A program made the position numbers and the translations under genes. Of a stretch of DNA of 64,000 nucleotides, positions 28,490-31,120 are shown one piece after another. The notes beneath the pieces were generated by a model, which searched no databases, had not been told where the DNA came from, and saw nothing but the letters and a program-made list of their open reading frames with translations. How positions within the stretch are numbered: position 1 is the stretch's first letter; every line of letters starts with the position of its first letter. This DNA comes from an uncultured Planctomycetota bacterium (GTDB taxonomy: Bacteria > Planctomycetota > Planctomycetia > Gemmatales > Gemmataceae), in contig CAWKHF010000003.1 of assembly GCA_963849325.1 (NCBI GenBank), positions 64,001-128,000 of the forward strand, read 5' to 3'.

Positions 28490-28897
28490 CAGCGGCCCAG
28501 CGCACCGAGGAACGACGGCACGCGCTCGCCCAGGTTAAGGAGCAGTCCGACCTCCGGCAGCGGCTGCAGGCGCTGTCCGCCGAGAGCGCACCGCTCGCGG
28601 CGGCAATGGCGAGAGCCCGTGAGTTCGTCGCCGGCTGGGCCACGGTCGCCCAGATCCTGGACGCCGCCGAGGAGGACGAGCTGCGGCTCCTGTTGCAGCA
28701 CTTCGTCGAGGTGATCGAGCTGGCCCACGAGTCGGCCGACGGCAAGACGGGCACCTACGCGCTGCGGCTTTTCCCGGAGGTGCGGCCGCTCGACCCGCCG
28801 CACGGGCCGGAAAACGAAGGCGGGCCACCCGACCCGACATCCGGGGGGCGGCCCGCGTTAACCGAGGCCGTCGAAACTTGTGGCGACCAGCAAAAAG
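28490..28897 (+). pseudogene. C-terminal remnant of a probable large serine recombinase reading into the tRNA 3' end
   Basis: Coiled-coil then ELRLLLQHFVEVIEL, resembling recombinase C-termini; frame continues antisense over the tRNA (KAPRVGLEPTT); no catalytic N-terminus. Confidence 0.5.
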
Positions 28898-28935
28898 CTC
28901 CCCGAGTAGGACTCGAACCTACAACAAACCGGTTA

Positions 28936-29599
28936 CGTTTGCCCCCATGTTTCCATGGGGAACGGACTATCTCATCACCCCAGAGGGGTGCAGGGCGCTC
29001 GAGGCTGGGTTATTGGATGGGCTCCTCACCAGCTAGTCTCTGCACCTTCCCGGCTACTGATTGCCCTTCGCCGGGCTTGGCTCAGGATTGCCGCCACCCA
29101 AAGTGCTGCGGGTTCCCTGCTAGGCCAACCGTTTCAATTCCTTGAGTAAACAAGGAATCTGCAGGTCTTCCTCCGTGGCGTGGTAAAACGTCACCGTACT
29201 GGCTTTGGCCAGGTATTGCTGAATCAGCAATAACTCCGACCTTTTCACCACAGAGTAGGGGAGGATGAGATCGCATAGAGCCAATCATGCCTGTTTTCGA
29301 TAGACGCGGATGCGATAAGAAGGCCGCGTCGATCTCGGCCTTGGAAGCGGGCCTTTCGTGGAGTAGGCGATGACGTTGTCCACGAGGATGGCAACGACCT
29401 TCCGGTGCATGGCTTCGCTAATACTCTCAATCGTCACACGGCAACTCATGCCGCGTTCCGAATCTCGATGCACCGTCACGCAGCCTTCGCCATCAATAAT
29501 TCCCGCCAGCCAGGCAATGTCGGCAATACCCATCTCCCCTGCCTAGTTTAATTCACCCTGTTTTCCACTGGCCATTGCTGACCAGCGCTGCGATTCTTC
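28936..29599 (-). ncRNA. Group I intron (664 nt) between tRNA positions 35 and 36
   Basis: P1 exon GCUGU with IGS GCAGC (U.G at the splice site); P2 with GCAA loop; P3 CAGGGUG/CGCCCUG; Q AAUCCUGAGC; R GCAGAGACUA; S GAGAUAGUCC; P8; P9 with GAAA loop; terminal G at 28936. Confidence 0.95.
29120..29533 (-). CDS. Single-motif LAGLIDADG homing endonuclease, 137 codons, with an in-frame TGA at 29285-29287
   Basis: IAWLAGIIDGEGCV motif; same frame continues past the TGA as LALCDLILPYSVVKRSE...LKRLA*; AGGGGAG immediately upstream. Confidence 0.88.
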
Positions 29600-29688
29600 A
29601 CAGCCGGTTGCTCTACCATTGAGCTATCGGGGAAAATCAGACGAGGGTGTTGGCCGGGCAGATCCCATCCACACGCTCGCCCGCATAT

Positions 29689-29773: not shown

Positions 29774-31120
29774 ATGACGGTTCGGGTGACGGTCATCGGG
29801 GCGGGACTGGCGGGACTGGCGGCGGCGGCGGCGCTGGCGGAACGCGGCTTCGAGGTGACAATGCTCGAAGCGCGAAACCGAGCCGGCGGCCGGGCCAGCT
29901 CCTTCGCCGACGCCGCCAGCGGACAACTGATCGATACCTGCCAGCACGTCAGCATGGGCTGTTGCACCAACTTCGCCCATTTCTGCCGCACGGTCGGCAT
30001 CGCGCACCTGCTCCAGCCTCAACCCGCCCTCTGGTTCGTGACGCCGGATCGGCGCAGGAGCCGCCTTGCCGCTGGTCCTCTGCCGGCCCCGCTGCACCTG
30101 GCAGGCAGTTTCCTGCGCGGCCATTATCTCACCCTGGCCGAGAAGATGCGCATCGCCTGGGGCCTGGCCTGTCTGCGGCGCAGGCCGATCGAGGACGATC
30201 CGCCTTTCCTCGACTGGCTGACGCGCCATCGACAGACGCCGCGCACCGTGACCCGGTTCTGGGGACTCGTGCTGACCAGCGCGCTCAACGAGACGCCCGA
30301 ACGCATCGGCCTCCGCTACGCGCGCAAGGTCTTCCTCGACGGATTCCTGGGCCATCGCCGAGGCTACGAGGTCCAACTACCGCGCGTGCCGCTCGGCCGA
30401 CTTTACGGCGAGGAGCTGCAAGCCTGGCTCAACCGTCATGGCGTTCGTCTCCGCATGGAGTGCGGCGCACGGCGATTGCGGTTGAACTCGGGACGGATCG
30501 AGGGTGTCGAACTGCGAAACGGCGAGAGGACGGTCGCCGATTGGTATATCGCGGCGGTGCCGTTCGACCGCCTGCTCGACCTGTTGCCAGCAGAGTTGAT
30601 CGAACGGGAACCCTACTTCAAGAACCTGCGGCGGCTGGAGACCTCGCCCATAACGAGCGTCCATCTCTGGTACGATCGACCGATCACGCGGCTGCCGCAT
30701 GCCGTGCTGGTCGATTGCACCGGCCACTGGCTCTTCAACCGTGGCGAGGCGGCCCCCGGCGAGTATTACGTCCAGGTGGTCGTCAGTGCCGCCCGGCAGT
30801 TCCGCGGGATGGGACATGCGGAGGTGCAACGTCTGGTCGTCGAAGAACTGGCCCGGCTGTTTCCGAAGGCGGCGACGGCGACGTTGCGACGCGCGCGCGT
30901 GGTGACCGAGCATGCCGCCACGTTCAGCGCGGTGCCGGGCGTCGATCGGTGGCGTCCGACCCAGGCATCGCCCCTGCCCAACCTGTTCGTCGCCGGCGAT
31001 TGGACGGCAACGGGCTGGCCGGCGACGATGGAAGGGGCCGTCCGCAGCGGCTACCTCGCCGCCGAAGTCGTGCTTGAGCGTTGCGGTCGAAAAGAACGTC
31101 TGCTCCAGCCGGACCTCTAG
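29774..31120 (+). CDS. hpnE: Hydroxysqualene dehydroxylase (hopanoid pathway)
   Basis: GAGLAG FAD motif, IDTCQHVSMGCC, EHAATF, AGDWTATGWPATMEGAVRSG. Confidence 0.85.
   Translation: MTVRVTVIGAGLAGLAAAAALAERGFEVTMLEARNRAGGRASSFADAASGQLIDTCQHVSMGCCTNFAHFCRTVGIAHLLQPQPALWFVTPDRRRSRLAAGPLPAPLHLAGSFLRGHYLTLAEKMRIAWGLACLRRRPIEDDPPFLDWLTRHRQTPRTVTRFWGLVLTSALNETPERIGLRYARKVFLDGFLGHRRGYEVQLPRVPLGRLYGEELQAWLNRHGVRLRMECGARRLRLNSGRIEGVELRNGERTVADWYIAAVPFDRLLDLLPAELIEREPYFKNLRRLETSPITSVHLWYDRPITRLPHAVLVDCTGHWLFNRGEAAPGEYYVQVVVSAARQFRGMGHAEVQRLVVEELARLFPKAATATLRRARVVTEHAATFSAVPGVDRWRPTQASPLPNLFVAGDWTATGWPATMEGAVRSGYLAAEVVLERCGRKERLLQPDL

Follow-up and report, generated by a model that had tools for sequence, protein, structure and literature searches.

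A LAGLIDADG endonuclease cassette within the P4 helix of a planctomycete tRNA-Asn group I intron

Our study reports on a group I intron, found in a 64,000-nucleotide stretch of DNA from an uncultured planctomycete (the window), whose homing endonuclease gene lies within a helix of the ribozyme core. Taken as a whole, the data are probably best explained by an IC3-like mobile intron in which a LAGLIDADG cassette is tolerated inside the 5' strand of P4. The genome, that of a Gemmataceae-like planctomycete, has two tRNA-Asn(GUU) genes, and in one of them the anticodon loop is occupied by this intron, which is probably mobile and of the Azoarcus/IC3-like type; its LAGLIDADG gene forms a discrete 430-nt cassette. 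We propose that the ends of the cassette pair to give a closing stem abutting the remainder of P4, and that the AAA trinucleotide links this stem to the first P4 nucleotide; P4 would remain stacked along its unbroken 3' strand, with the reading frame displayed as the side helix of a three-way junction, so that the ribozyme would still fold and splice, as introns do when their frames lie in peripheral loops. Of the three mechanisms put forward in the first-pass annotation of this DNA, a looped-out junction that the ribozyme tolerates has the strongest support.

A tRNA-Asn(GTT) gene was called at 29633-28897 on the minus strand, with a 664-nt intron after U35, by aragorn with introns allowed, a setting that makes many false calls across the genome; the default aragorn scan of the window reported no tRNA. 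Removal of the intron yields a cloverleaf with a GUU anticodon from the exons under the same option. Another intron-bearing tRNA of the genome received conflicting anticodons from aragorn. The group I hallmarks are present (the P1 U.G at the 5' splice site, the terminal G, the P3/P7 pseudoknot, P4-P6 and P8-P9), and in a scripted check all 79 hand-placed pairs of the intron and tRNA are standard pairs. The Rfam model RF00028 matches the window at 29162-28943 with 56.6 bits against a gathering score of 50, in an alignment that makes the end of the reading frame serve as P1-P3. The model scores above its cut-off in 9 of the 20 related loci scanned; the non-tRNA examples are weaker (L065, 42.2 bits; L188, 30.1; L025, 27.5), and L062 gave no match at E 0.001. 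The features of the locus are as follows.

29600-29633, minus strand: tRNA-Asn(GUU) 5' exon, 34 nt, last base U35 (aragorn intron option and sequence).
28936-29599, minus strand: group I intron, 664 nt, starting GAAG and ending with G at 28936 (Rfam, aragorn, helix-check script).
29587-29591, minus strand: internal guide GCAGC, pairing with exon GCUGU as P1, with U.G at the splice site (5/5 pairs by script).
29568-29585, minus strand: P2 hairpin CUGGUC-AGCAAU-GGCCAG (one compensatory change relative to L048).
29554-29560, minus strand: P3 5' strand CAGGGUG, partner CGCCCUG at 28997-28991 (sequence and script).
29550-29553, minus strand: J3/4 AAU plus U29550, the first P4 nucleotide, which pairs with A29082 (transferred by alignment from the Rfam alignment of cassette-free alleles).
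29120-29549, minus strand: inserted cassette, 430 nt, missing from natural cassette-free alleles (comparison with those alleles).
29547-29549, minus strand: AAA linker from U29550 to the closing stem (invariant in 12/12 aligned tRNA-Asn cassettes).
29541-29546, minus strand: closing stem 5' arm CUAGGC (fold and in-register pair count).
29120-29533, minus strand: single-motif LAGLIDADG homing endonuclease frame, 137 codons plus stop, TGA-interrupted (translation, profile, homologues).
29285-29287, minus strand: premature TGA, in frame, as codon 83 (V or A in most homologues).
29120-29125, minus strand: closing stem 3' arm GCCUAG, the last Ala codon plus the UAG stop (fold, pair count, third-position invariance).
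29115-29119, minus strand: remainder of the P4 5' strand, CAGGG, directly adjoining the cassette (sequence, Rfam alignment, script).
29081-29087, minus strand: P4 3' strand UCCUGAG (sequence, Rfam, script).
29049-29075, minus strand: P6 hairpin CCCGGC ... GCCGGG (Rfam and script).
29034-29039, minus strand: P7 5' strand AGACUA, partner UAGUC at 28969-28965 (Rfam and script).
28976-28990, minus strand: P8 hairpin CACCCC-UCU-GGGGUG (Rfam and script).
28943-28960, minus strand: P9 hairpin CCCCAUG-GAAA-CAUGGGG (Rfam and script).
28897-28935, minus strand: tRNA-Asn 3' exon, 39 nt (aragorn intron option).

The position of the cassette is defined by natural cassette-free alleles, which carry the predicted junction GAAUU-CAGGG (hyphen at the insertion point) in genomes and in contigs 96-97% identical to the intron core of the window. 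These relatives score 78-108 bits on RF00028, which aligns the junction as J3/4-P4 with J3/4 as AAU and P4 as UCAGGG/UCCUGA; the insertion point thus separates P4 pairs 1 and 2 and falls inside a helix, not in a peripheral loop. The first-pass annotation had taken P4 to be TTCAGG/CCTGAG. Its view that the cassette splits P4 stands, while its helix limits depart from those of Rfam by the addition of a basal U.G pair, a pair supported by two cassette-free alleles in which U.G has become C-G. The strings it relied on lie where it placed them (CAGGGTGAATT at 29560-29550, AAA-CTAGGC-AGGGGAG-ATG from 29549, GCCTAG at 29125-29120, CAGGGAACCC from 29119 and CCTGAG at 29086-29081), and subtraction of the cassette leaves the expected 234-nt intron (664-430 = 234).

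The ends of the cassette are complementary, as had been proposed, with CUAGGC and GCCUAG forming 6 bp and the UAG stop closing the stem. When in-register pairs were counted for the interior 12-mers of the cassette as a control, only 1 of 391 matched the six pairs of the closing stem, which exceeds chance. All six pairs are present in the minimum-energy fold of the window, with a mean pair probability of 0.97, and in 11 of 14 loci such folds contain at least 6 of the stem's 6-10 pairs. Seven of the 137 third codon positions are invariant over 10 aligned rows, and the final GCC and UAG codons account for two of them; read from this alignment, invariance at synonymous positions is a mark of RNA-level constraint on the closing stem. 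Because this stem hardly varies among the tRNA-Asn cassettes, formal pair counting was replaced by in-register counts over unrelated stems, with interior 12-mers as the control. The linker reads AAA in L058, L062 and L025, and GA in L065. The first P4 pair is U-A in every cassette-free allele read; C.A takes its place in 3 of the 11 distinct cassette alleles from tRNA-Asn, and G.A in L062; the junction may therefore be rearranged in some cassette-bearing introns. In the genome's own tRNA-Leu intron family, 8/8 loci read carry 10 additional nucleotides, largely conserved, at this position to within one base.

Cassettes of 426-436 nt lie between GAAU(U/C) and CA(G/A)G in 14 distinct tRNA-Asn loci, and tRNA-Asn introns from Acidobacteriota genomes and from soil metagenome contigs have homologous cassettes at precisely this point. 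The same insertion point is also used, with different closing stems, in introns within or next to phage head genes. Nine loci tested carry homologous insertions there whose closing stems differ but are complementary. In L058, L062, L065/66 and L025/60/61/188/189 the closing stems are unrelated and have 8-11 in-register pairs, and 0-1 of 410-456 interior 12-mers in the controls are as long. Across these loci the placement of a cassette inside P4 is a recurrent arrangement and not a one-off, and on the conditions that the first-pass annotation had set for its own refutation the results favour it. The tRNA-Asn introns exist in several allelic forms: some are empty, some have an HNH gene in the loop of P1, some the LAGLIDADG gene in P4, some another LAGLIDADG gene after P7, and some carry two genes together. 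In L058, L025 and P0021 the frames read on through P4-P6. The whole intron is found at the same tRNA-Asn site in different phyla, and on this distribution it has clearly moved between them.

The reading frame fills 414 of the 430 nt of the cassette. It had been described as frameshifted; it is in fact one 137-codon frame whose sole interruption is the TGA that stands as codon 83. This copy of the gene was therefore probably disabled recently and is probably decaying. Selenocysteine was rejected for this codon, as homologues have Cys in no case and V in 12/17; aragorn does report a tRNA-SeC for the genome. Of the 14 distinct tRNA-Asn cassettes, 9 have an intact frame and five a broken one (the window, L055, L056, L057 and L059). 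The protein is 53-70% identical to intact 137-aa homologues, with one more distant at 42%, and W8, L9, G11, I12, D14, G15, E16 and G17 are invariant across 18 sequences, which include the conserved LAGLIDADG motif with its acidic residue. Against PF14528 (Pfam LAGLIDADG_3) the protein of the window reaches 20.5-21.1 bits, below the cut-off of 22.5; 17 of 18 family members match at E <=0.01 (best 4.4e-9), and the family profile matches I-CvuI (5a72) at E 9e-5 over residues 6-111. We slightly favour a model in which the active enzyme is a predicted homodimer that would cut intronless tRNA-Asn genes near the anticodon stem-loop and so drive intron homing.

Within the tRNA-Asn family the cassette is shown by the alleles compared to be gained or lost as a unit, in keeping with its first description as an element in its own right. 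On an intron-core tree of 40 rows its presence requires seven changes, at least four of them forced by starred branches, giving at least 4-7 gains or losses; the rows were sampled in two ways, cassette-bearing ones by protein search and cassette-free ones by DNA search. This pattern bears on a tentative alternative, in which the cassette parasitises the intron itself: its endonuclease would cut the cassette-free P3-J3/4-P4 sequence (GGrUGAAUU-CrGGGAA, hyphen at the insertion point) and copy only the cassette, whatever the host gene, and the ribozyme may tolerate the result. Related cassettes (~35-41% protein identity) do sit at one intron point in unrelated hosts (tRNA-Asn; L062 and L065, which have phage major head protein frames beside them; and the phage contigs L188/L189), and their flanks share the conserved core string. 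The changes on the tree agree with such a scheme, as does the fact that the cassette-free contigs are nearer to the window than its nearest cassette-bearing relative (87% identity). The cassette-bearing L024 and the cassette-free L134 agree at 193 of 195 aligned positions lying outside P4-P5 but at only 28 of 43 in the adjoining P4-P5 segment, a mosaic that resembles a conversion tract; it is a single case and may reflect either gain or loss. The insertion point lies in a GAATTC palindrome and would fit a 4-nt staggered cut centred there, but beyond GAATTC the two-fold symmetry of the intron site is near chance (3-5/11 pairs), against a modest 6-7/11 at the tRNA site. Furthermore, the broadly congruent cassette and core trees also fit co-inheritance with repeated loss, the two-way sampling of the rows may affect the tree, and the movement of the whole intron between phyla into the same tRNA-Asn site means that something must cut the tRNA gene. 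In its fullest form, which we regard as possible though doubtful, this alternative holds that the LAGLIDADG family parasitises group I introns and not host genes; it would recognise the P3-J3/4-P4 DNA of IC3-like introns and insert there, and would therefore hop between introns of tRNA genes and introns within or next to phage capsid genes, the ribozyme core having evolved to work with a helix emerging from P4.

The cassette-bearing alleles retain from 46/51 to 58/58 of the consensus pairs. The window and L048 carry sister cassettes at 66% nucleotide identity, and over 79 pairs they differ by five double compensatory changes (one each in P2, P3 and a P7.1-like helix, the other two in the T stem of the tRNA), two one-sided changes and three breaks, two of the latter being a P9 alignment gap. 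The five compensatory changes between two cassette-bearing alleles favour a still-splicing intron with the cassette as a side helix of P4; comparison of these sequences thus favours a ribozyme under selection with the cassette in place, and splicing is predicted. No public run contained half of the sampled words of the region (best 0.15), and no exon-exon joint was seen in contigs of four runs at 85% likeness, in which uncovered stretches are uninformative. Contigs from the RNA libraries X7 and X9 cover, in relatives, both cassette junctions and the 5' exon-intron border, and are neutral on splicing. All 3 cassette-bearing genomes checked (G000, that of the window, G457 and G458) have a second tRNA-Asn(GTT) gene that lacks an intron, and 4 of 10 same-genus genomes have two tRNA-Asn genes; the argument that splicing must occur on grounds of essentiality was dropped because of these second genes. 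The exon sequence of the interrupted gene differs from that of its paralogue.

It is on these second genes that a further, unlikely reading draws, namely that introns with the cassette have lost splicing and the interrupted tRNA-Asn gene is a dead copy, while the second gene supplies the cell and the endonuclease drives spread. The missing exon-exon joint, the broken P4 pair 1 in some tRNA-Asn alleles and the broken endonuclease of the window would all suit a dead copy. It is opposed by the compensatory changes in ribozyme helices and the tRNA T stem, by the retained consensus pairs, by the normal cloverleaf of the exons, by the invariant synonymous positions of the closing stem, and by maintenance of the arrangement across 53-70% protein divergence. 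Some mitochondrial LAGLIDADG proteins are maturases, and by analogy the encoded protein, whose cassette lies in the P4-P6 scaffold, might hold the split P4 together; the nonsense copy of the window would then be splicing-impaired. We consider this improbable, as the tRNA-Asn cassettes with broken frames belong to a set whose cores keep their pairs. Least probable is nested removal of the cassette from the RNA before the intron acts: the ends pair and excision would restore a perfect P4, but the frame takes up nearly the whole cassette, the best match to another RNA family inside it (E 8.1) is at chance level, the one-sided bulge affords no bulge-helix-bulge motif, and genomes and one DNA run contain the joined sequence, which makes joined reads alleles and not products. 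A twintron, whose inner element would have its own ribozyme or splice signals, was rejected on the same frame length and chance-level Rfam matches, and an archaeal bulge-helix-bulge intron (two 3-nt bulges and a 4-bp helix) because AAA is on the 5' side only and the stem adjoins P4 without an unpaired base.

The preferred model, a tolerated cassette within P4, can be set beside known systems. Like the Azoarcus tRNA-Ile and cyanobacterial tRNA-Leu(UAA) introns (IC3), the window's intron lies in an anticodon loop and has a 5' U.G, a terminal G and a small P2-P9 core; unlike them, it is hosted by tRNA-Asn(GUU) and has its reading frame inside P4. We take the subgroup label from a presumed likeness to the Azoarcus intron. 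With the cassette taken out, the J3/4-P4 string reads AAUUCAGGGAA, which would likewise resemble that of the Azoarcus type. The tRNA hosts named for bacterial group I introns in the portions of the literature consulted are Leu, fMet, Ile and Arg, with disputed short introns in Gly and Lys; within the limited collection searched, no description of one in tRNA-Asn(GUU) was found, and a search for insertions in P4 or between P3 and P4 gave unrelated papers only. The single LAGLIDADG motif and small size recall the homodimeric I-CreI and I-CvuI enzymes of 23S rRNA introns, whose frames lie in peripheral loops, though the present family is 137 aa against 172. A further comparison is the endonuclease-bearing tRNA-fMet intron of Synechocystis (I-Ssp6803I; Bonocora and Shub, 2001), which is reported to have a 150-codon frame. 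Its enzyme presumably belongs to a different family. Group I introns with frames continuing into core sequence are noted in a figure legend (2b) of a review (Hausner et al., 2014); coding sequence overlaps the core there as it does in L058, L025 and P0021, but those are loop-borne frames that extend, whereas here a whole gene lies within a core helix with its own closing stem.

The tRNA-Asn family documents the spread of a bacterial intron across phyla, for which the relevant part of a 2014 review (section 11) found little evidence. Its natural allele series makes the independent invasion of introns by endonuclease genes directly testable. The textbook view places the frames of group I introns in peripheral loops, leaving the core free to fold; in the present introns the conserved P4 helix is split by an entire gene, an arrangement maintained in several lineages and host genes. 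If splicing proves true, P4 can bear a three-way junction, with consequences for our understanding of ribozyme folding and for the placement of cargo in engineered introns.

On the minus strand of the window, an endonuclease cassette interrupts P4 in the catalytic core of a group I intron, which itself splits a tRNA-Asn(GUU) gene. The tRNA gene was called by aragorn with introns allowed, the default scan having returned no tRNA anywhere in the window. The match of the Rfam group I model covers 29162-28943 and scores 56.6 bits (cut-off 50); its alignment is correct from P4 on but forces P1-P3 into the tail of the endonuclease frame, where non-standard pairs are marked. The remaining elements were placed by reading the sequence.

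Elements of the interrupted tRNA gene, its intron and the cassette
29633-28897, minus strand: tRNA-Asn(GUU) gene, split after U35 by a 664-nt intron
29591-29587, minus strand: P1 guide GCAGC, pairing with exon GCUGU, with U.G at the splice site
29585-29568, minus strand: P2
29560-29554 and 28997-28991, minus strand: P3, CAGGGUG with its partner CGCCCUG
AAU, then U29550, minus strand: between the 5' strand of P3 and the cassette
29549-29120, minus strand: 430-nt cassette, consisting of AAA, CUAGGC, seven bases, a 137-codon frame and its stop
29533, minus strand: ATG of the frame
29119-29115, minus strand: P4 CAGGG, pairing with UCCUG inside UCCUGAG (29087-29081)
Following P4, minus strand: P5, P6, then P7 (29039-29034 with 28969-28965), a P7.1-like hairpin, P8 and P9
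28936, minus strand: G at the 3' end of the intron

All 79 hand-placed pairs are standard, and the elements together make up a complete small group I intron. The opposite strand directly before the start of the tRNA gene encodes an hpnE-like squalene-associated FAD-dependent desaturase (29774-31120, plus strand).

The last Ala codon of the frame and its UAG stop form GCCUAG, which is complementary to CUAGGC and provides the closing stem of the cassette. The first-pass annotation spoke of a repaired protein; the frame is not shifted, and holds a single in-frame TGA at codon 83 (29287-29285). With X at this position, the protein matched 21 of 42 candidates at E 0.001 or better, most of them intact proteins of 137 residues, 53-70% identical, from soil metagenomes and Pyrinomonadaceae, and one of them the window's own 82-residue shortened product. 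The LAGLIDADG motif residues are invariant in an 18-sequence alignment, and position 83 is V in 12, A in four and I in one of the 17 homologues. The window protein scores 20.5-21.1 bits against Pfam LAGLIDADG_3, just under the cut-off of 22.5; 17 of the 18 family members match this model at E 0.01 or better, and the family profile matches the homodimeric enzyme I-CvuI (E 9e-5). On the profile matches, the motif and the residues at position 83, we read the frame as a putative gene for a single-motif homing endonuclease that recently acquired a nonsense mutation. Because none of the public sequencing runs searched holds the locus (best word share 0.15), the TGA may also be a base-calling error.

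Cassette-free alleles define the insertion point. The 3' part of the intron at L024, a cassette-bearing Acidobacteriota locus, matched 36 of 301 sampled genomes of its order (that of the cassette-bearing genome G457), and all 30 loci returned (L133-L162) are tRNA-Asn introns at the identical site. Seventeen are frame-less, with lengths of 243-288 nt (L145 judged by eye). Ten, of 551-570 nt, carry a frame in the P1 loop, which tested as an HNH endonuclease in L136 and was assigned by length and common sequence in the other nine. The others are a 422-nt remnant (L152), an intron with a LAGLIDADG_2 gene after P7 (L161, E 1.5e-34) and a single P4 cassette (L133, which is the L024 locus itself). 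An extra hairpin of roughly 30 nt occurs in the P1 loop of L140, L147 and L159. The frame-less alleles read ...GGAUGAAUUCAGGGAAGCC..., and in-silico removal of the cassette lets the cassette-bearing alleles be aligned to them base by base; the cassette-free alleles that had been predicted thus exist, with the predicted junction. Rfam scores the frame-less alleles at 78-108 bits, with J3/4 as AAU and P4 as UCAGGG/UCCUGA, and the cassette therefore sits between P4 pairs 1 and 2. This covariance alignment, proposed earlier as a check, places the insertion point inside P4, the opposite of a peripheral loop with P4 intact. P4 covaries among frame-less alleles, from C-G to U-A in L138 and L142, G-C to A-U in L153, L154 and L157, and, at the base of the helix, U.G to C-G in L150 and L158; L138 is from a genome flagged unpublished (G706), and no claim depends on it alone. 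The junction AATT|CAGGG was also found in contigs 96-97% identical to the window core, from DNA run X1 and RNA library X2, with a variant in run X9. Since the joined form occurs in a DNA run, it is an allele and not an RNA product.

A protein-guided search of genome and metagenome contigs yielded 14 distinct cassette-bearing tRNA-Asn loci, L133 and L024 being counted once. In every one, the tRNA-Asn(GUU) gene has a group I intron with a cassette of 426-436 nt, preceded by GAAU(U/C) and followed by CA(G/A)G; L023 and L024 are on Acidobacteriota genomes and the remaining loci on metagenome contigs. The Rfam group I cut-off was passed by nine of 20 loci scanned. The endonuclease frame is intact in nine of the 14 and broken in the window, L055, L056, L057 and L059; some of these five breaks may be assembly errors. 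In locus L049 (1-640), a single intron holds two endonuclease genes: its P1 loop contains an HNH frame tail (..CANCHREAH..), and P4 contains the LAGLIDADG cassette.

Cassette-bearing alleles keep from 46/51 to 58/58 consensus pairs and cassette-free alleles from 54/58 to 58/58, the lower counts of the window and of metagenome contig L048 being measured against a consensus drawn mostly from Acidobacteriota. These two carry sister cassettes (support 100/99), and across 79 pairs they differ by five double compensatory changes (in P2, P3, the P7.1-like helix and, twice, the tRNA T stem), two one-sided changes and three breaks. Two of the breaks are an alignment gap in P9, which by eye pairs in a shifted register in L048, and the third is P4 pair 1. 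Conservation of the closing stem extends to synonymous sites, the last GCC and UAG codons supplying two of only seven invariant third positions (137 codons, 10 rows, without the frameshifted L056 and L059), and the minimum-energy fold contains at least six of the stem's 6-10 pairs in 11 of 14 loci. The kept pairs, compensatory changes and stem constraint are taken as signs that selection would keep the RNA folding and splicing with the cassette in place. No exon-exon joint was seen in contigs of four runs. Another, intronless tRNA-Asn(GTT) gene is present in the window's genome and in the cassette-bearing genomes G457 and G458, so that essentiality of the interrupted gene cannot be argued; two tRNA-Asn paralogues occur in four of 10 same-genus genomes.

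The strand order suggests how the core might accommodate the insert. U29550 is followed by AAA, the 5' arm of the stem, the frame, the 3' arm and CAGGG, with no base between the 3' arm and CAGGG, and the 3' strand of P4 is uninterrupted. The cassette ends and P4 would thus form a three-way junction, in which the closing stem would point outward and P4 would remain stacked on P6 and along its own 3' strand. All 12 aligned tRNA-Asn cassettes have the AAA linker, which recurs in the other introns L058, L062 and L025, with GA in L065. Every cassette-free allele read has U-A as its first P4 pair; with the cassette this pair is C.A in L048, L050 and L054 and G.A in L062, and this relaxation suggests that the first pair may be lost at the junction.

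The same genome holds a second group I intron (L002/L167, G000:C2:959739-960019, minus strand; 35.1 bits, under the Rfam cut-off), whose host reads as tRNA-Leu(UAA) and is miscalled Ser by aragorn. In the P4 of this intron, 10 additional bases (CAGUCGAAGU) separate AAUU from CGGGG, at the cassette's spot within one base. The 10-nt extra is present in all eight loci of this family read, seven differing by at most one base and L172 by two; it suggests that the spot tolerates extra nucleotides, and may be a tolerated bulge or a scar. In two same-genus genomes, G007 (L185/L173) and G008 (L187/L174), about 500 nt interrupt the match to the tRNA-Leu intron near query position 148-166, a hint that a further gene is inserted elsewhere in that intron.

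Distant protein relatives (about 35-41% identity) are encoded at the P4 insertion point of other introns, and the closing stem differs each time.

Closing stems of cassettes in other introns (5' arm; 3' arm)
L058: CUAGAGA; UCUCUAG
L062: GUAGUAUCA; UGAUACUAU
L065/L066: GACCUAUG; CAUAGGUC
L025/L060/L061 and phage contigs L188/L189: CCGUUUCG; CGAAAUGG

Across nine loci the stems have 5-11 pairs in register from both junctions, and for the four non-tRNA stems only 0-1 of 410-456 interior 12-mers reach equal pairing. By Rfam the group I assignment of these examples is weaker (L058 76.4, L065 42.2, L188 30.1 and L025 27.5 bits); L062 has no Rfam group I match at E 0.001 and was assigned from its P4, P6 and P7 strings. 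Frames beside the L062 and L065 introns match phage major head proteins (phrog_9953, E 1e-35; Pfam Gp23, E 2e-7), and in L065 a further intron lies between the head frame and the cassette-bearing intron. L065/L066 carry several tandem group I introns beside the Gp23-like major capsid frame, one with a P4 cassette; L065 has two Rfam matches and, upstream, a P9-like end. In L058:2001-2592, L025:2001-2586 and protein P0021, the closing stem has no stop and the frame continues through P4-P6 and beyond, giving C-terminal extensions encoded by the ribozyme core. Homologues at 28-30% identity occupy an ordinary P6 loop of another tRNA intron (L027-L037, L070, L076, L077, L080 and L097-L100, mostly Pyrinomonadaceae genomes), for whose host tRNA aragorn gives conflicting anticodons (Arg, SeC, stop).

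The hpnE-like neighbour has named homologues in Gemmataceae at 74-77% identity. The 3' part of the tRNA-Asn intron was not found in 60 relatives searched, where matches are the 3' exon or a different intron, and a further 400 genomes from the phylum gave only one match, a weak one. The same tRNA-Asn type, without an intron, is present in seven of 10 same-genus genomes; in the other three (completeness 93, 82 and 64) the pattern search found nothing. The nearest cassette-bearing relative is L048, with 87% identity in the core, 66% in the cassette and an identical 5' exon. We infer from these comparisons that the intron probably came horizontally into a conserved target site. Locus L019 (G054:C211:32442-32540), in a same-class genome, matches the P5-P6 part of the window intron at 76% and is probably another group I intron.

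On a core tree of 40 introns (13 with the cassette, 27 without; L133 as a duplicate, L054 with its 3' end cut, and L152 and L156, whose anchors were not found, left out), cassette presence needs seven changes, at least four of them forced by well-supported branches; gain and loss counts are limited by rows from two different sampling routes. Only one of 500 label shuffles was as good as the observed distribution. The cassette tree, built from 14 rows, agrees with the core tree in broad outline; this fits gain accompanied by co-conversion as well as co-inheritance in which the cassette was repeatedly and precisely lost. Outside P4-P5, L024 and L134 share 193 of 195 positions, but only 28 of 43 in the columns adjoining the cassette, where L024 and L137 agree at 41 of 43; the L024/L134 pair looks like a mosaic. 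Two-fold symmetry of the candidate targets is weak: of 11 pairs, 6-7 are symmetric in the anticodon stem-loop of the tRNA, and 3-5 around the intron site. We slightly favour an enzyme that drives homing of the intron into tRNA-Asn; that the cassette itself homes into the conserved intron core seems less likely.

A 2014 review (Hausner et al., section 11) found little to show that bacterial introns move horizontally. In the part of a cyanobacterial tRNA survey consulted, the intron hosts named are Leu, fMet, Ile and Arg, and the portion seen of a 2025 intron database paper does not address frame position. A literature search, with most subscription journals outside its reach, found no relevant paper on a group I intron in tRNA-Asn nor, in main texts, on an insertion located within P4 or between it and P3. 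We therefore rate the intron-plus-endonuclease element as of a known, ordinary kind, and its recurrent insertion point inside the ribozyme core as unusual.
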